A DNA stretch of 64,000 nt from Okamejei kenojei (lineage: Eukaryota): NCBI GenBank assembly GCA_035221665.1, contig CM069162.1, positions 26,846,001 to 26,910,000 on the forward strand. Direction: 5' to 3'. Position 1 is the stretch's first letter, and each line of letters begins with the position of its first letter. Shown here one piece after another: positions 1 to 10,108 of the stretch. Both the position numbers and the translations under genes were made by a program. Under the pieces are notes generated by a model. The model searched no databases and had not been told where the DNA came from. It worked only from the letters and a program-made list of their open reading frames with translations.

Positions 1-228
1 TGATTGTATACCTCGTTGTCACCTTCCCCTCAGCTAACAATGAACTATTCTACATTTCCTTCTCATCATCTGCTTTGATCTGTCATTTTCAAACCTTACT
101 GTTCCATATCCCTGGACTTCCTCTCCCCTGACTCTCAGTCTGAAGAAGGATCTTGACCCAAAATATTACCCATTCCTTCTGAGATGCTGCCTGTCCCACT
201 GAATATTCTTGTTTTTTGTGTCTATCTT
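1..228 (+). mobile_element. Penelope-like element 3'/pLTR-derived fragment (degenerate)
   Basis: Contains CAGTCTGAAGAAGGATCTTGACCCAAAA...GAGATGCTGCCTGTCCC...TTTTGTGTCTA, the motif repeated many times in this window. Confidence 0.65.
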
Positions 229-881
229 TATGGGTACGCGACAGTTAGGGTTGGGTCCCTTTTTCATACTGTGTCTGTGCTGTATAGCTCTATGAATCAT
301 GACACATTCAGTCCACAGAAATCTAATTATTCAAGTTATATTTTACACTAAGTTATTCAATCTTTATATGGCAAAACCTTTACAATAAGAAAAGGATACA
401 ATTTGATTATCCTTGCCTGTAATACAAACTTTGTGAGTAGCATACAAAGTCCCCAAATTCCTTTCAACACCAGCATCCACTCGCCTTTCAATAGATGTTC
501 TCCTTTTCTGTTCCCGCTACCCATTGTGAACAATTTCATACTTCCATACACCATCTGCCCCCTCTTTTGCCCAGTCATTCTCCATCAATTTGACGTCCAC
601 AATAATCTACTAGCCACAACCTGTGACACCGAAAGGGCCCACTTATTCATTTTAGGACTTTGCAATGATACAGCCCACGGTAGACGGAAGGGCGAGGGGG
701 GGAGGGGACACCCGGTGTGGATGAGGGGAAGACGAGACGCCTGGGAGTTACAGAGCCCGGGGGCGGAGCAGGTGTCGCCCCGGGAGTTTCTGCTTATCTC
801 CAGTGCGGGGATTGCTTTGTGTGAGCCACGCACACACACATATATCTATATACACAGCAGTGACAGCCGGCTGCCACTCAC

Positions 882-968
882 CAGCTCCTCTGGACTGCGG
901 CCCTCTCGCTCCCCGCAACAGCAGCGGCAGCAACAGCAGCCCCACGGCACACCTCGACCGCTCGCCAT
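882..968 (-). CDS. CLCN6: CLCN6 (H+/Cl- exchanger ClC-6) coding exon 1; gene continues beyond the left edge
   Basis: Minus strand reads MASGRGVPWGCCCCRCCCGEREGRSPEEL then a GTGAG donor. This matches the Cys-rich human N-terminus MAGCRGSLCCCCRWCCCCGERETRTPEEL (29 aa), and it is head-to-head with MTHFR as in human. Confidence 0.95.
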
Positions 969-1039
969 CGCCGCGCGCGTCACCCCGCCCCCACACACAC
1001 GTGACCGCTCGGGCCACCCAGACTGCCGTCACGTGCTGG

Positions 1040-1104
1040 GGACCGGCCTATCGCGGAGGAGGAGGAGGCCCCGCGCGGCTGGCGCGTGCCCGGTTGTCCG
1101 TTAG
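1040..1104 (+). other. MTHFR: Putative non-coding exon 1 of MTHFR (start approximate)
   Basis: Donor-like TAG|GTTGGG at 1104/1105 in the CpG island, divergent from CLCN6; alternative donors CAG|GTAGG at ~2045 and CAG|GTAAG at ~4645. Confidence 0.4.
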
Positions 1105-1177
1105 GTTGGGTTCGCGCGGGCGCGCGCTGGGACGGACTGAGGGAGCTCGAGGGTACACAAAAGCAAAAAGATTATAG

Positions 1178-1271
1178 CACAAAAGGCCGGAGAAACTCAG
1201 CGGGTGCAGCAGCATCATCATCTAAGGAGCGAAGGGGATAGGCGACGTTTCGGGTCGAGACACTTCTTCAG
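1178..1271 (-). mobile_element. Penelope-derived short element with hammerhead-like core
   Basis: Reverse complement reads CTGAAGAAGTGTCTCGACCCGAAACGTCGCC. Confidence 0.7.
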
Positions 1272-1439
1272 TCCCTGAGGGAGCTCGATCCGCGCGGCGC
1301 TGGTCAGCCAGCGAGTGGGTCGGAGCGGCCGTGGACGGGAGGGTCTGAGGGCATACGGTAACAACTATTAGCCGGACTGGCTGTAAGGGGGCCGTGGAGT
1401 GAACACGAGTGCTGGGAGAATGTTCTATTCATTCACAGA

Positions 1440-1710
1440 ACGGGTGGCGCAGCGGGTAGAGCTGCAGCGACGGAGACCCGGGTTCGATCCTGACCTCGGG
1501 TTCTCCCTGTGAGTGACCGCGTGGGTTTCCTTCGGGTGCTCCGATTTCCTCCCACATCTCAAAGGTGTGCGGAGTTGGAGGTTAATTTCCCTCTGCAAAT
1601 TGCCCCCTAGTTTGAAGGGAGTGGATGAGAAAGTGTGATCGGGTGATCGATGGTCAGGGTAGCCATGGTGGGCCGAAGGGCTTATTACCACGTTTTATCC
1701 CTAAACCTAT
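1440..1710 (+). mobile_element. tRNA-derived V-SINE (HE1-like)
   Basis: A box GGTGGCGCAGCGG, B box GGTTCGATCC, V-domain GGGTTTCCTTCGGGTGCTCCGATTTCCTCCCACA, CR1-like tail GGGCCGAAGGG. Confidence 0.8.
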
Positions 1711-2496
1711 CTAAGAACTCCGTATGAGTTTGCCCTGAAGGATGTGAAGTGTGGCATTGTGTAGCTAACTAATTTAACGTGAGTAACTCAGCCGGTTAGG
1801 CGACATCTGTGGAGAACATGAATAGACGACGCTTCGGGTCGGGTGACAACTCAGTCTGAAGAAGGGTCCGTCATTTCCCTCCACGGATAGTGCGTTTCTC
1901 ACCGCTTCGTGCTTTGTTCGAAAATATAAGATCCTTTTGAATTGGTTTGAAAGTCAAGTTGCGATTCTGTTCTGCGTCAATGGGAAGGCGCTCGTGGATT
2001 TCATAATGTCGAGGCGACTCGAAAACGTTTTAAACGATCCCACAGGTAGGTTGGGATAAAGTTTCTAAAATACTGACCTAACTAATGTTTCTAGGTCTGC
2101 TGCGAAACCGTGCCCCAGATCCCCTAAGTCCGACGGTGGAGTTACTGATTTTCCATCGCGACTGAAAAACATCAGACGACGACGATACCGACATGGATAC
2201 TTGTGAAATTAACGGACGAGTGAACTTGTACAACAGAGAAGGCTGAAGTGATTTTGGCAGGAAGCATATGGAAAGAATAAGTTTCATGGAATCAAGAACG
2301 CAATTTGTGCAAAAGACTTGGTTTATTTAGAAAGCGTCAGGGCAATCCTACTGAGAATGAACGTGGGGTGGGGTTTGGGGTTTATGAAATAGCCACGAAG
2401 ACAAAGGGGAGAAAGGCCGTGGAAGGTGCGAAGGACGAAATAAACACGAAGGTAGGAAATTCACGAGGTAGCCCAAATATATTTTTAAAAAGTTAA

Positions 2497-2680
2497 AGAC
2501 ACTGAAGCCTGCAGATACTGGAACCTTGAGCAAAACACAAAGTGCTGGAGTAACTCAAAAGGGTCAGGCAGAATCTCTGTGGAGGGCTGAATCTAAAGAC
2601 TCGTCCCAACCCGAAACGTATATATTTCCTCCACACGTGCTGCCTGACCTACAGAGTTCCTCCAACATTTTGTGCTTTGC
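2497..2680. mobile_element. Penelope-derived inverted pair (palindromic short element)
   Basis: ACAAAGTGCTGGAGTAACTC...GGTCAGGCAG pairs with CTGCCTGACC...GAGTTCCTCCAACATTTTGTG. Confidence 0.65.
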
Positions 2681-4077
2681 ACGAAGTTAACTATGTTTTT
2701 TTCCACAGCTGTTTCCTGACCAGCTGAGTGTTGAAACAACATTTCGTATTTCAGTTTCAGTTTCCCAGAATCGACACTTTTTGATTCAGTTTCAGATCCC
2801 CAGAATCTACACTGTCAAGCCTGTTCCTCAATTAGGAAGATGGTGAATTGTGTCCCAAGTCCACTTTGCTCTCTGCTTTCTCCTGGATATTCAAAAATCT
2901 GTTGATTTTGTAATTTCTACCCTTGAAGGGCTTTGAATCCTTGGCTATCCTTACATTAAAAACAAATCAATAAATTACAACTATCTTGACTGAAGGCATA
3001 TCTCATCAGCAGTCCTGAATGTTTGAGACCCCCCCCCCAAACATCTGACACAGTGTCATAGGTCTGTAAATGGAACACCATTCACTCTGTCAAACGTTTC
3101 AATAAGGCTGATTCTTAACTCCAGAGAGTAGAAACTCTCTATTCAATATCCCTAGGATAACCCCTTAAACACTTGAATCCAGTGAATGCAAATATAGAGG
3201 TCAAAACTGCACACTATATAATGTTGCTTGGAGTAAAGAAAGATTGGTTATGGGATAAATTGACAAAGGTGTTTAAAATGTGATTTTTTTTTAAAAATTA
3301 ACACAGGTTTGTGTTTATTCAATGAATTGTTTTGTGTTGTTAAAATCTCTTTTATTGTGGAGGTGGTTTTCAGATATTGCGATATGATTCGGTCCTGCTC
3401 TTGGTGCTCTCAGCTGGTGATCAAAATTGTGAACATCGGTGTATGCTTCTAAGTATAGAGGTTCTTCAGTCTTTGAGATTGAGTGCCTTGAGTTCAGCTT
3501 GCCATTCATTCTACAGCATGTCAGTTGCATTCTAGTCATGAGAGTTGGGTTTTCAACTGCCTCTGAATCTGCAGTGGGAGAGTCTGTGATTAGTTGTGTT
3601 GTGAAGTTAACCACATTTTACTTTCGCAGAACTCCAATTTGGTTCTAATTGGGAAAGCAGAGTGAAAAGAAAGCCAAAAGGAAAATGGAACGAGAGAGGG
3701 TAGGGACAGATGGGGAGGCTGCAATGGATTTTACTCGCATCGTATACTGATTTTGACCCTGCCAATTTTTTAATTGTAAAAACGAAACTTGAAGACATAT
3801 GATTCAAAAGGATGACTTAAGGAGTGTCATCAGAGAAGAGAAGGGAAGAGACTTGCATGGATATGAGGATTGGGGCTACTGGGTACAGTGAGGATGTCAA
3901 AGTGTCAAAGGGAACTGGCTGAGTATAATTGAAGGGAGACAGTGAGAACCAGGAGCTGGATGTTTAGTGTGCTGTGGGGATAAGGTCAGTGGTGTTGAGG
4001 AAAAATGATGAAGTTTGCAGTGTTAATCTCTGTCCTGAGATTGTTTCCTTTTGTTGTATGGATGTTATTTGAAAAGA

Positions 4078-4770
4078 TATAGGAAGGTTGCATGACAGTC
4101 GAAGTCACGACCCATGACCCGTACTGTTGCCACGCACCGCCTTCTAGAGTACACGCGGTGAACATCAGGTAAGCATTTACTATGGCAGCCAGTACAGACA
4201 AACGTTTTCTGTCCTAGCATCCGGACTCCACGCTGACTGGTTCTACACTCACGGACCCCGGGCTGTCTATCCCCGTGTGGGGGGGGGGGGGGAAGAGGAG
4301 GTCGGGGTGCCTGTGCAGCATGGTCAGTGACTCTGGGTGGGCGGAGGGACCAGACTGTCCCCAACTCTGCTGCAGCTGACGGGAACGTTGCGGGTTTTCG
4401 TCCCCGCGTGTCCGCTGCCCAGAGCCGCGGCCCTGCTCCGCCAGGCCCCGCAGGTCCACAATGGCCGGACAGTGTTGACCCCAGGGGGAGAATGGGGGCT
4501 GTCCTTGGGATCCGCTCCTTCGGCCGCTTACACCTTGGTGCTTGGGTTCAGAGCAAAGATACTAGAGCATTTGGTTAAGATTGCTCAGTCACCCTCCACA
4601 ATTATTTCCAGTGCAAAAATTGACTATTTCTGCGGTTTTTAACAGGTAAGAAAGTACGCGTTTTGTGTGTTAACAGTGTATGCCGGATGCTGCCATGTCC
4701 TCCAGTAGGATTGAGCTGCTCTGTGCGTCACGCCCTGTGACCCGATGACCTTACGCGCAACCCCCCTATA
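4078..4770. mobile_element. GC-rich non-autonomous DNA transposon with degenerate TIRs
   Basis: Left end TATAGGAAGGTTGC...GTCAC...TGAC; right end GTCAC...GTGAC...GCAACCCCCCTATA (inverted). Confidence 0.55.
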
Positions 4771-5195
4771 AATGGTGGCATAGGAGTGGGAATCTGACTA
4801 ATTGGCTGGCAGTGATTGCCATTATTGCAACCACAACCCAATCCTAGGTCTTACACCCCTTTACTACCCCCCACCCATCCCCATTCCAGTCTCCCGTTGA
4901 AGCTTTCAGGAGAGACAGATATGAGGAAGTCACGTATCAGTCTTGATTCCATCAAAAGGCTGAATTTACTTGAGAAATGAATTGGCTTACGGTTCAAAAA
5001 AGTGGCAGTTGCATCACATCCGGTTTGAAAATTCAAAATTCTTCATATAAATGGCAACATAATTCAGATGCTTATCAAATGTAAGATCTGTCACCAATTG
5101 ATCAGTTTTGAGGATTCTGGGGCATCTGAGAGTCACATTTACCTGGTGGAAATATGTGTGATGTGAAGGAGTAAAATGGTGACATGTATTTTGCT

Positions 5196-5249
5196 GGGGT
5201 GGAAGATTGCAACCTTCACGTGGTCCGCCCTGTTTCAACTAATGCAATC
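5196..5249 (+). ncRNA. HDV/CPEB3-like self-cleaving ribozyme fold (minimal P4)
   Basis: P1 GGGGTGG/CCGCCCT with G.U at position 1; P2 GATTGCA/TGCAATC; P3 ACC/GGT; L3 TTCACGT; J4/2 CTAA. Confidence 0.75.
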
Positions 5250-5334
5250 AACTCGACGTGCACAAACGGAAGATCAAATAGAACAAGTTGTGCAACAACT
5301 TTTAGCTGTGCACGCCACACGAAAGAAGAAGAAG
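5196..5334 (+). mobile_element. Short non-autonomous retroposon (Vingi/RTE-type tail) with HDV-like ribozyme head
   Basis: TSD ATGTATTTTGCT (5184-5195) / ATGTATTTTTCT (5335-5346); (GAA)n tail; second copy at 60524-60650. Confidence 0.85.
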
Positions 5335-5720
5335 ATGTATTTTTCTATCCTAGTTAGTCCAGCAGTGAGAAGAGATTCTGTTGGGACTACAACACCTTTG
5401 ACTACAGCTCTTCAAAGTCGGGAGTGTACTTCAAAGTGTATTGTAGATAGCCTTAATTTCCAGTTGATCAACAATAACCAGTTAAAGATTAGGGGGGAGT
5501 TAAAATTGTCTTCCTGATTCTTGGCTTGGACCACTATGTGGATCAGAAGTAGGGAATATGCGAGGTGCAGATTCACTGTGTCCTTGGATGACCCATTGCC
5601 AATTACCAAACAAGTTGTGTGCTAATGCACCATTTCCTTCTGCTACTTATTGCATGAGAGTAACAGTTCCAATTAATTAAGGAGCTGGATTTTTTTGTTT
5701 TTGTTTGCAGATAACTAGTG

Positions 5721-5938
5721 ATGCTGATCGAAGGACATAAAGGCATGGGGCGTGTGTCCAAATCTGATGAGGGTTCCAGAGATGGTTCGAGGGGAAGTTC
5801 ATGCAGTTCAACTCCTCTGGCTGACACCGATCGACTCAAGGATAAAATGCGCCTCCGTATTGAATCAAGAGACATCTGGTTCTCCCTGGAGTTTTTCCCT
5901 CCGCAAACGGCCAATGCTGCTGTTAATCTGATCTCCAG
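5721..5938 (+). CDS. MTHFR: MTHFR coding exon 1 (acceptor at 5710/5711)
   Basis: [19 protein letters not shown]...SSTP...[21 protein letters not shown]; AG|GT donor. Confidence 0.93.
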
Positions 5939-6600
5939 GTGAGGCTGGTCATGACCGGGTATGTTAAAGCTCAAGAGAAGACTTGGCTTGGTGATGAGTC
6001 TGACTGTTTTATTTATTTATGGAGTCTGGGTATCACTAACAATCCCAGTTTCATTGTCCATCCCTAAATGGTCCAAAGGTGCAGATTCATTGTGCATTGG
6101 ACATATACAGTAAAATGGCAAAGAACTCAGGACTGTTGATGTGCAGAGGGATCTCGGGGTGCAAGTTCAGCTCCAAGAAAAATACACTACAGGTGGATAG
6201 GGTCATGAAGAAGGTAATTAATGCAGAAGAGATTCATTAGGTTGATGCTTGGAATGTAGGGCTTTAAGTTGGGAGAGATTGTTTATTCTCACTTGAACAT
6301 GGGAAGCAGGGACAACCTTATATAAGCTTATGTAATTGAGGGGCATAAATTGGAGAGATGGTCAGAAACATGTTGGCAGAAACATCACAATTGAATACAT
6401 TTTTACTTTGAGACGTTGGAATTATTTTTTTAATTACTTGATGACTATTGAGGGTAACCATCCCATTTTTACCAACCGCTGATGCAGGTCAGTTTACTGG
6501 ACAGATGAATGATCCTCCTGCATCGTCAAATGTTGCATACTTGGGATTTTGCAATAGATTCTGTGTTGTAACTTGTTGACTGTGACCTTTGCTTGGTTAG

Positions 6601-6839
6601 GTTTGACCATATGGCTGTTGGTGGGCCACTCTTCATTGATGTAACCTGGCACCCTGCTGGGGACCCAGGTGGTGACAAAGAGACATCTTCTATGACCATT
6701 GCCAGTACAGCAGTAAATTATTGTGGCCTAGAGACACTGTTGCACTTAACCTGCTGTAACCAAACCAAGGATCAGATCACACAGCACCTGAAGAAGGCTC
6801 GTAGCCTTGGACTGAAGAACATATTTGCACTTCGTGGTG
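6601..6839 (+). CDS. MTHFR: MTHFR coding exon 2
   Basis: [52 protein letters not shown]...LKNIFALRG; 239 nt, canonical splice sites. Confidence 0.97.
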
Positions 6840-7381
6840 GTAAGAAATTGAACAATGTTCTGCTTTTCACTTTTTCTGTAACTCATTTCCTCCTCCTCTT
6901 GTCACCCACCCCACCTCCCAGCCATTTAACAGAGAATCTCAAGGCTCAGTGTGAGGGCACGAATCCAGCCTTTCCATTGTCTATATTAATTCTAATGTCC
7001 ATGGATATAGCAAAGATGATTGTCAAAAGAAACTCAGGCTTGTGATTAAAACTGCTTTCTGTGGCATTTTCCATATGTTATCCTTTCATATTCTTCAATC
7101 TGTGAGGTATAGTTATTTTTCTATTGGACCTGTTAGACAAATAACATTGGGGAGGGGCAACTATAGACCCCATTAATTTGAAATATTTGTCACCTTCCTG
7201 TAAACAATACCATCACAGTTAAACACTGTTTGCTGCAGAGTTGGCCCTGTGTTAAATAAATTAAATATGATAGTCTATTCTGCATTTTTCCACGTTGACA
7301 ATGAAAGGTAGAATGAAAACCCAAAGTTCAGAGTTAATGGGATGTACGAGTCAGTAACACATGCTGTTTTGCATTCTTTAG

Positions 7382-7492
7382 ATCCCCTGGGTGATGAGTG
7401 GAAGACTGAAGAAGAAGGATTTAATTATGCCAGTGACTTGGTCAAACACATTCGCTGCGAGTTTAATAACTATTTCGACATCTGTGTGGCTG
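7382..7492 (+). CDS. MTHFR: MTHFR coding exon 3
   Basis: [37 protein letters not shown]; 111 nt. Confidence 0.97.
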
Positions 7493-7588
7493 GTAAGCGA
7501 AGCTCTGCAAAAAAAGTTTTTTTTTTGTATCTCCGTCTTGATGTCTGTCTTGAGGCAAGATGCTGATTTAAATGTGGTTTCATTGTAG

Positions 7589-7782
7589 GTTACCCAACTG
7601 GGCACCCTGATTGTGGCAGTTACAAGGAGGATCTCAGACATCTGAAAGTAAAGACAGATGCTGGCTCAGACTTTATCATCACCCAACTATTCTTCAAACC
7701 TGAGACCTTCCTAAAGTTTTATACGGACTGCCGTGCGATAGGAATTACTTGCCCCATTCTGCCAGGGATATTTCCCATTCAG
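7589..7782 (+). CDS. MTHFR: MTHFR coding exon 4
   Basis: [36 protein letters not shown]...[10 protein letters not shown]; 194 nt. Confidence 0.97.
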
Positions 7783-7945
7783 GTATAGTGGTCCTAGAGC
7801 AAGCCTTTCCAGCTGTGCCTTTGGTGATATACCTTGAGATTCCAGAGCAATAACATCACCCAGTTTGTTGTAGTGCAGTACAATGCTTCTTGTGCTGGTA
7901 CAACTACTGCTATTAATCTCATTCTTCTCATACCTTGTGTGACAG

Positions 7946-8196
7946 AGTCATCACTCACTGCGACAACTGGCCAAACTCTCCAAGCTGCAGGTTCCACAGG
8001 AAATCAAAGATGTCATTGACCCAATCAAGGATAATGATGATGTTGTTAGAAACTATGGTATTGACTTGGCCACTGATATGTGCAGGGTTCTACTGAAGTC
8101 GGGGTTGGTGCCAGGGCTCCACTTCTACACCCTGAACCGAGAGGTGGCTACTGTTGAGATTTTGAAACGACTCGGACTGTGGACTGAGGACCCTAG
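7946..8196 (+). CDS. MTHFR: MTHFR coding exon 5
   Basis: [31 protein letters not shown]...[10 protein letters not shown]...WTEDPR; 251 nt. Confidence 0.97.
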
Positions 8197-8512
8197 GTGG
8201 GCTTGAACAAACAATTTAATCACGCACATGATTGCTACAACTCGCCGCACTTAAGATTAATGGCCCAACTACACAATTTGTTAAATATTACTTAAATTCT
8301 ACATGTACGTGCTGCCCCAGTTTATTAACTTGCATTGTTGATAAAAGGATACCATATTTATTTTCTCTGTAGAGATTATTGCTTTACTATGCTGGTGCTG
8401 TAATTGTGCTCGGGAACTATTTGGATATTTCCCAGCTTTGGACCATTTTTTAAAAGGCTCACGGCATAAATTGTGTGCAAACATTTTAATTGTTAAATTT
8501 TTGCATTTGTAG

Positions 8513-8647
8513 GCGAGTGTTGCCATGGACCGTCAGTGCCAATCCAAAGCGAAAGATTGAGGATGTCCGACCAATATTTTGGGCTTCGAGGCAGAAGAGT
8601 TATATCTACAGAACTCAGGACTGGGATGAATTTCCAAATGGAAGATG
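8513..8647 (+). CDS. MTHFR: MTHFR coding exon 6
   Basis: [45 protein letters not shown]; 135 nt. Confidence 0.97.
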
Positions 8648-9321
8648 GTATAATCATAAATCATTACTGCACTCTTTTGACTGAACGACTGCGCTAAAGT
8701 GCAATACCAATATAGCTTATCATGCAAGGAAATTTACAGTTGTAATTAATTGGCATTATACCAATCTTGGATTTTGTCAGTGGTGCATGTGGAACATTCT
8801 CACTGTGTCAAAGAGAACAGCCTGAGCTGTGTGGAGAAGTTGGGCAGGCTAGGACCTTATTCCTTGGTGCACAGGAGGATTAGGGGTGGGAATAGATAGG
8901 GTGAATGAACAGAATCCAGGGTAGGGGAATCAAGAACGAATGGGCATGGGTTTGAGGCGAGAGGGGAAAGAAGTAATAGGAATTTGAGGGGCAACTTTTC
9001 CATACAGATGATGGGTATACGGTGTGAGCTGCCAGAAGAAGTAGTTGAGGGAGATACATTACATCAGTTTTGCATCTGTTCTCTGCAGCTCAGGCTGTTG
9101 AATCTTTCATTTTCATTTTTAAGAGGATGAGTATGGATTTCATTGTGGAATTCTCTCACAGATGTTAGTTTATTGAACAGCCTGCCTCCAATGTGGAGCA
9201 CTTAATTTTCTGATGAAACAACTGTAGAAAAGATATTTACTGATGAAATCAACTCAATTGGTGGCTTTGTTGTAACTATGTTACTCAGTGCCATAGTGGT
9301 ATGCTTTTTATTATATTTCAG

Positions 9322-9502
9322 GGGGAACTCATCATCTCCTGCATTTGGTGAGTTGAATGATTACTATATTTTCTATCTGACGAATAAATGTCCCAAGGAG
9401 GACCTGCTGAAGATGTGGGGGGAAGAACTGGTAGACGAAAATAGCATCTTCGATGTCTTCACAGCATATATCACTGGGCAGCCCAACAGCAATGGGATAA
9501 AG
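9322..9502 (+). CDS. MTHFR: MTHFR coding exon 7
   Basis: [19 protein letters not shown]...[16 protein letters not shown]...NGIK; 181 nt. Confidence 0.97.
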
Positions 9503-10108
9503 GTAATATAACGATAAGGACCAAATAAAAACAACCCAAAAGATTTATGAAAATAACAATTTTGTGACTAATTCCGAAGACGAGAGTTAAATTATAAATC
9601 CTGTAGGAGTTTCTGGAAACAATATTTTTAAACTAAATGTATAATGTATAATTTAATGATCATGTCTTTACTTTAAATTAATAAACACCTTGTGGAAAGC
9701 TGGGTATATGTGTTATTTTGTCATTGATTGGGATAAGATTTATTCTGCTAGCAGTTCACTAAATTTGACTAGAACATGACTTTATGTGACAAATGCAAAT
9801 GCACAAAATCTTGAATTCTGGAATCCAGAGGCAACTATTTTCACTGATCATGTTTCAAAAAGAGTGCAGTAACAATCATTCATGAGAGATGTACTCGGGT
9901 TCAGTTCTTTCCCTTTTATTCTTCCCTTCTCTCAATATCTATTCTCTCCCGGTAACATGGCAGCTGAGGTTTCACATGTAGCTAGTTAACTTGTCCAATT
10001 AAAGTAAGCCTGGCAATTTTCCATCTTAGAGGCTCAAGGGTCTAAACGGTCAAGCCAGTCCAGTTCTTAAATATAAATAAAACTCTGTATTTCTGGTTTG
10101 TACTTCAG

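Follow-up and report, generated by a model that had tools for sequence, protein, structure and literature searches.

Introduction

Minimal HDV-like ribozymes are treated by Kienbeck (2024) and are reportedly the subject of a 2014 study by Riccitelli. According to sections 7 and 8 of PMC10879173, for which human, mouse and protist genomes were searched, approximately 99% of the ribozymes without the P4 helix are confined to Caudoviricetes. In the same paper, theta ribozymes are described as often lying beside tRNAs; four of them cleave in vitro, the fastest at more than 10 per min.

HDV-like ribozymes also stand at the heads of retrotransposons. The ribozyme of L1Tc and NARTc is described as cutting just 5′ of position +1 (PMC4035085, PMC3383444), and SIDERs are a further precedent (same papers; review, PMC6765202). 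The LINEs of the Vingi clade, which is in use as a gene-insertion tool, are described as approximately 3 kb long with a single ORF that encodes APE and RT without RNase H (PMC13708176). Internally deleted bipartite derivatives of Vingi are reported in section 23 of PMC5786205. The intronic CPEB3 ribozyme, conserved for approximately 159 My, lies 9,931 nt from the next exon and cleaves with a k of approximately 0.3-0.4 per min. Its sequence is described in PMC8256844 as substantially different from that of HDV, and domestication has been suggested for vertebrate ribozymes generally, with the source unnamed (PMC7761336, section 10).

Here we analyzed a 64-kb stretch of DNA (the window) in which an earlier note had proposed a self-cleaving ribozyme within an intron of MTHFR. 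In the reading that we consider probable, these 54 nt head a short Vingi-type retroposon and have the predicted fold of a minimal HDV-like ribozyme, which likely frees the RNA of the element from host transcript upstream; the copy in MTHFR is most likely a passenger.

Results

A predicted HDV-like fold at positions 5196-5249

The nested double pseudoknot proposed in the earlier note was found with its helices as described there. On the plus strand, P1 is formed by 5196-5202 and 5225-5231, with a G.U pair at G1 and a second wobble, U.G, at 5200/5227. J1/2 is AA. P2 (5205-5211/5243-5249) consists of seven Watson-Crick pairs. P3 is formed by 5212-5214 and 5222-5224, and encloses the 7-nt L3 at 5215-5221, which has U first and CG late. 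As the note had indicated, this loop is shared with the CPEB3 ribozyme (RF00622 model consensus). P1.1 is the single pair C5217-G5232 with a U.U apposition. P4, which the note had called almost absent, is replaced by a 5-nt link. J4/2 is CUAA, and its leading base, C5239, is the predicted catalytic C (equivalent to C75 of HDV), in agreement with the candidate named in the note. The predicted cut is at 5195|5196.

We built a descriptor that demands a P1 of 6-7 bp with a G1-Y pair, a P2 of 6-8 bp, a 3-bp P3, a 7-nt L3, one P1.1 pair and C as the first base of J4/2; these features follow the description of HDV-like ribozymes in PMC6326823. Over both strands of the 64-kb window, a single match was obtained, and none in 100 dinucleotide shuffles. 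The match, 5196-5249, has the nested P1/P2/P3, the G1-Y pair, the 7-nt L3 and C5239 at the head of J4/2. As a false-positive control, the descriptor was run with the catalytic C replaced by A, which gave 17 matches versus 59 with C; the 17 probably represent those same copies in a register shifted by one base. The locus departs in two respects from PMC6326823. Its CUAA differs from the CRRA of the design descriptor, although CUAA is common in the theta table of PMC10879173, and its P1.1 has one C-G pair and a U.U, whereas the classical P1.1 has two pairs.

The Rfam models, which the earlier note had named as a check, did not reach their thresholds. The scan of the whole window gave no gathering-level match, and an E-value scan of 4700-5700 (1 kb) gave five weak matches, none of them a ribozyme. 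In a scan of 91 nt, RF02682 alone was matched, at exactly 5196-5249, with 16 bits against a gathering threshold of 44 (E 0.32); this was the best result among the HDV-like families (RF00622, RF02682 and others), and RF00622 itself gave no match. The label "HDV/CPEB3-like" is thus right as to the HDV-like fold and the L3 of CPEB3, and wrong if taken as membership of the CPEB3 Rfam family.

In ViennaRNA, the z-score was -0.23, and nested folding yielded P1 alone. A weak nested-fold z-score is expected, because the pseudoknot is beyond the reach of this program. Competition between P1 and P2 within the model makes the z-scores and a comparison of P1 with that in 38 other copies uninformative. In the MTHFR context, the predicted P1 probability ranged from 0.98 to 0.01, depending on flank length and temperature.

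The z-score, which is not significant, and the lack of a gathering match in Rfam are what would be seen if the fold were a chance match, or if the head of the element were that of a tRNA-derived SINE. However, the absence of matches in 100 shuffles and the recurrence of the fold, built from different sequences, at the heads of LINE families located by protein search rule out a chance fold. A tRNA-like head is contradicted as well: ARAGORN found no tRNA gene in positions 1-10000, and the match of the head to a LINE runs from nt 1. We therefore regard this explanation as extremely improbable. The HDV-like arrangement at 5196-5249 is confirmed as a real feature.

The fold opens a short retroposon

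The predicted ribozyme is the head of a 139-bp non-autonomous bipartite retroposon of Vingi type at 5196-5334 on the plus strand. The element lies between target site duplications (TSDs) of 12 bp at 5184-5195 and 5335-5346, which are identical in 11 of 12 positions. The left TSD ends at 5195, so the predicted cut coincides with the TSD boundary, as the earlier note had observed. By blastn, the element consists of nt 1-72 of a parent LINE, a middle of approximately 27 nt and the last ~40 nt of the LINE. The ribozyme is followed by the remainder of the LINE 5′ segment (5250-5267, element nt 55-72); the alignment to the LINE copies stops at nt 72. The middle piece at the deletion junction (5268-5294) has no match in the parent LINE. 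The 3′ part (5295-5334) contains the ORF end, the 3′ UTR and the tail, which is (AAG)4 at 5323-5334, and would be the recognition site of the RT. The element thus has TSDs and a microsatellite tail, and shares both ends with an autonomous LINE, of which it lacks the middle.

The same genome holds many copies. Exact matches numbered 8,051 for an 18-nt core, at least 10,470 for the middle 20-mer and 109 for the entire 54-mer ribozyme, with none for the reversed-pattern controls. The window copy is 96-98% identical to the 29 closest other copies fetched. We also examined 30 copies picked by the middle motif only; these were the first 30 on contig C1, and two of them are a duplicated pair. In this sample, 28 copies reach position 1, two are 5′-truncated and none extends 5′ of G1. 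A TSD candidate ends at most 1 nt from G1 in 25 of the 28 full-length copies, three candidates being just 6 bp long. The strict descriptor was passed by 11 of the 30; should this proportion be representative, the genome would hold a few thousand intact folds. Of 66 distinct flanks in the family, 40 have T at position -1, which may be a target preference or an added base.

Among 29 copies, the frequent variants are at the unpaired positions 8 (J1/2), 42 (link) and 45 (J4/2). The catalytic position is covered in 28 sampled copies and is C in 26 of them. The first P3 pair is broken by a change that occurs in five sampled copies and has 421 exact matches genome-wide, which crowd near contig ends. 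Since 421 is 5% of 8,051, we rejected the idea that this variant is a large subfamily; it is likely a recurrent mutation.

The parent LINE

A pattern for the LINE 3′ end, in which the ORF end lies upstream of the common tail, had 305 matches in the genome. The parent LINE opens with the same predicted ribozyme; an ATG lies near nt 107, ahead of the APE domain. One P1 pair is U-A in the parent, whereas it is U.G in the short element. One copy (L301) has a TSD and spans 3,044 bp, from G1 through the AAG tail. In another (L187), pieces match the Pfam domains APE and RVT_1. L093, an RNase H-bearing LINE of this genome, gave no tblastn match on L301 with its RNase H region. No intact ORF was present in 150 scored parent matches, and every parent copy examined is frameshifted; the driver of the young copies was thus not found. 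Read across the broken frames, the parent has a compact single ORF with APE and RT and without RNase H, and in its sequence it fits the Vingi clade as described.

The RT of the parent is 36-43% identical to those of sister families versus 26% to that of the RNase H-bearing LINE. The midpoint-rooted RT tree comprised 12 of 18 loci (six were dropped for short or no matches) from the genome's own families, without an RTE row or a named Vingi reference protein, and it speaks for kinship among these families only. The name Vingi is based on the 5′ end of Vingi-2_Gav, which matches the heads of sister LINE families. In an Atlas search, the C-terminal piece matched unnamed eukaryotic RT-associated clusters only.

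Many parent copies are rearranged at the 5′ end. At least 12 of 27 copies with an ORF start (L189-L215) are inverted relative to the body, and the ribozyme piece is inverted in 6 of 30 3′-end loci (L157, L158, L165, L179, L183, L185 and L187 are among the loci showing inversions). These inversions have the pattern of twin priming, and the A-rich tract at nt 72 is often their starting point. In one of these loci, L165, the segment enclosed by the P2 arms has been flipped back.

L093 itself (G000:C2:28223500-28230500, minus strand), which we take to be an I/Nimb-type LINE, has an uninterrupted APE-RT-RNase H ORF of 1,276 aa and an AAG tail, and is apparently intact.

Sister families and the pairing between them

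None of the top 30 Pfam APE loci matches the element; all are other LINEs. Of 16 further APE loci, one led to Vingi-type families. The 5′ ends of these LINE families, located by protein search, carry the fold, and six element families in the genome begin with it. Between six representatives, both-sided changes were seen in all seven P2 columns, three of six in P1, two of three in P3 and at the P1.1 pair, which is U-A in family V2. When strands were swapped between families, they paired fully in 2 of 30 combinations for P2 and 5 of 30 for P1. Because the descriptor used to select the representatives requires pairing, each necessarily pairs with itself, and V3 and V4 are closely related; the weight of the covariation therefore rests on the position of the fold at the 5′ ends of the elements. 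A seventh family fits the fold with one mismatch per helix, and in the families of L148 and L297 the full fold was not recovered.

The P4 region is kept in four of the LINE families and is missing from the window's family and from family B. The latter (L248-L277, e.g. G000:C1:162590280-162590450, minus strand) is a second short family of approximately 165 bp with TSDs and an AAG tail. Its fold lacks P4 and has a 6-bp P1 and a CPEB3-like P3 and L3. There were 1,324 first-look candidates, and 17 of the 30 best copies passed the descriptor. Its parent was not found in the 27 loci tried.

These data bear on a second explanation, in which an internal Pol II promoter, comparable to Pr77 of L1Tc, fixes the 5′ end, and the fold inherited by the short element is slow or idle. 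A fixed start site would likewise give sharp 5′ ends, and the first 77 nt of L1Tc are described as both promoter and ribozyme (PMC4035085, PMC3383444). The single-pair P1.1 of 5196-5249 and the loss of the fold in many copies would also agree with an idle ribozyme. However, pairing is kept between families despite the turnover of sequence, for which a promoter in DNA has no need, and the frequent variants among copies avoid paired positions. We consider this explanation unlikely, though an internal promoter may coexist with the ribozyme.

The copy in the MTHFR intron

An exon at 5711-5938 (plus strand) encodes the N-terminus of MTHFR, with an in-frame ATG at 5721 (E 2e-13 to human MTHFR). RNA-like contigs from three runs of one study (X1, X2 and X3) join to it, in contiguous coordinates, an untranslated exon at 2095-2451 with AG/GT ends. 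A further untranslated exon, inferred to be the first, is placed at 1065-1152 with an approximate start. It corresponds to 88 contig bases 5′ of the 2095 exon and is followed by GT at 1153; this piece is absent from the contig alignment table, and its placement also rests on a difference at 1120, 32 nt from the end of the piece. The contigs are approximately 98% like the window and possibly derive from a relative, which may not carry the insertion.

The element lies in sense in the 5′-UTR intron at 2452-5710 (3,259 nt), 515 nt from the acceptor at 5710|5711. The sense orientation within a transcribed MTHFR intron and the distance to the first coding exon are therefore as the earlier note had them, and transcription starts upstream of the element, as two untranslated exons lie upstream in the contigs. 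These exons make the intron the second of the contig isoform, not intron 1. Many contigs run from the host flank into 5196, where the depth is high; they have no bearing on cleavage, because contigs reveal no ends, strand or level.

Two neighboring features were seen in the window. The minus-strand stretch 882-968 is likely the first coding exon of CLCN6, a gene arranged head to head with MTHFR; the sole match among PDB sequences is ClC-6 (E 0.4). A GC-rich repeat at ~4090-4765, with short terminal inverted ends and multiple copies in the contigs, resembles a MITE more than a promoter island.

The earlier note inferred that this copy could cut MTHFR pre-mRNA co-transcriptionally. In this reading the copy is a working regulator, which lowers MTHFR output by cutting the pre-mRNA before splicing, as has been shown for the CPEB3 intron. 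The copy lies in sense in a transcribed intron, its ribozyme is intact by the descriptor, and folding predictions for short contexts allow the upstream flank to pair internally, with P1 left available. The time available is short. At the Pol II rate of 3.5-4.1 kb/min given in PMC10919898, the polymerase reaches the next exon after approximately 8 s (calculated by hand from mammalian values at 37°C; splicing may lag as well). At the rate of the fastest theta ribozyme, ~75% of transcripts would be cut in this time, and at that of the CPEB3 ribozyme, which itself has 9,931 nt, only ~5% would be cut over the 515 nt (also calculated by hand). Against a regulator, moreover, the copy is young (~97% like the closest other copies) and is one of 109 with an identical ribozyme in a family of more than 10,000, no sign of selection on it was seen, and spliced MTHFR contigs cross the intron, with the reservation on their source given above. 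A working regulator is thus improbable, and the special effect on MTHFR did not stand as the main point. With only ~8 s before the next exon, a real effect on the host is likewise unlikely. The location in MTHFR, taken alone, is probably incidental, and the ribozyme likely serves the element rather than MTHFR.

CPEB3-type heads among the sister LINEs

Family B matched RF00622 with 26.9 bits (E 1.1e-5), under the cut-off of 35. When the genome was searched with RF00622, 42 of 59 scored candidates matched; 30 exceeded the cut-off, the best with 66.8 bits, and in 14 control genomes there were none. Of 20 places fetched, three continue into an APE start resembling that of the other families, and one adjoins an inverted APE piece. 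CPEB3-type heads include L305, L308, L310/L327 (G000:C14:7155335) and L325 (G000:C31:21564843-21564930, minus strand; 38.1 bits). L327 and L325 run on into APE and RT related to those of the window element's parent.

The 5′ end of the gharial element Vingi-2_Gav is printed in the supplement of PMC5786205, a paper in which CPEB3 is not mentioned. Compared by eye with the RF00622 consensus, it agrees at 35 of 37 and 11 of 11 displayed positions. This near-identity and the sister LINE heads over the RF00622 cut-off suggest that the mammalian CPEB3 ribozyme originates from a Vingi 5′ end. PMC8233481 makes no mention of origin, retrotransposition, transposable elements or Vingi, and our literature search did not find the CPEB3-Vingi link, of which earlier notice is possible. 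In addition, the 3′ end of the alligator element SINE2-1_AMi, labeled "unknown", resembles by eye the tail of L325, and may be a Vingi 3′ end.

Discussion

We propose that the ribozyme would act in the life cycle of the element as follows. A sense copy inside a transcription unit would be transcribed by read-through. The nested double pseudoknot would form, and C44 (5239) would cleave 5′ of G1, leaving an RNA that begins at G1 with a 5′-OH. The LINE protein would bind the common 3′ end in trans, and a new copy would be made by target-primed reverse transcription; new copies are found to start at G1 between TSDs. The MTHFR copy would be a chance insertion with an intact ribozyme. Some pre-mRNA may be cut, probably a small share, since the polymerase is at the next exon ~8 s later, and the copy is most likely a passenger that the host tolerates, and may serve as a source copy.

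We extend this proposal with less assurance, while still leaning towards it. The Vingi clade would begin with HDV-like ribozymes, of which thousands in this genome would be P4-less, theta-like and intact, many of them intronic; the CPEB3 ribozyme would be a domesticated Vingi 5′ end. If this is true, the insertion in MTHFR replays in the present the event that gave rise to the CPEB3 ribozyme.

Minimal HDV-like ribozymes would then reach beyond gut phages into a vertebrate genome, in thousands of copies, and Vingi would join the ribozyme-headed LINEs. As a consequence, the 5′ UTR of Vingi would likely self-cleave in RNA templates. Two questions can now be put to the test: whether the removal by hosts of ribozyme insertions lying in sense in introns depends on how far away the next exon is, and what the source of the CPEB3 ribozyme was. 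Our literature search did not find Vingi ribozymes, of which earlier notice is possible. To judge from its repeats, the host may be a cartilaginous fish; the papers listed on that group were unrelated.

Comparison with known systems

The CPEB3 ribozyme (RF00622 consensus) and 5196-5249 share L3, a single-pair P1.1 and a sense, intronic location. However, the CPEB3 ribozyme has P4 and is single-copy, whereas the window ribozyme is P4-less and multi-copy. In build, 5196-5249 is closer to the minimal theta ribozymes than to CPEB3.

We compared 127 of the 7,704 rows of the theta table of PMC10879173, together with search matches. Theta ribozymes and 5196-5249 are both P4-less, with a 7-bp P2 and a 5-nt link, which is within the range of the rows compared. 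Many rows have a P3 and L3 identical to those of 5196-5249, a link of 5-8 nt and CUAA. By eye, row no. 1782 is one base off the commonest core form from P3 to P2′, P1′ aside. In contrast, P1.1 has two pairs in all 127 rows, where 5196-5249 has C-G and U.U. Furthermore, theta ribozymes are located in phages, often beside a tRNA, whereas 5196-5249 lies in a vertebrate intron at the head of a retroposon, with no tRNA gene in positions 1-10000. Judged from its sequence, 5196-5249 is thus predicted to work like a theta ribozyme, yet it is not one.

The element itself resembles NARTc/RIME, the derivatives of L1Tc/ingi, and the R2 SIDEs as far as these are described in the sources cited: all are short and built from the 5′ and 3′ ends of a LINE. 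Like Pr77/L1TcRz, it has an HDV-like ribozyme at nt 1 with a cut just 5′ of +1, which is predicted in the window. However, L1TcRz is 77 nt long with P4, and the window ribozyme is 54 nt long without it. Unlike NARTc/RIME, the element has a vertebrate host, more than 10,000 copies, a parent without RNase H and an AAG tail. With the Vingi LINEs and their non-autonomous derivatives (Kojima), as described, its parent shares the single-ORF APE-RT build of ~3 kb without RNase H, and the element itself the bipartite make-up. The retrotransposon origin indicated in the earlier note is borne out by the copies, the TSDs and an Ingi-related parent LINE. The window element is a ribozyme-headed non-autonomous retroposon of a known kind, unusual in its P4-less build, its vertebrate host and its copy number.
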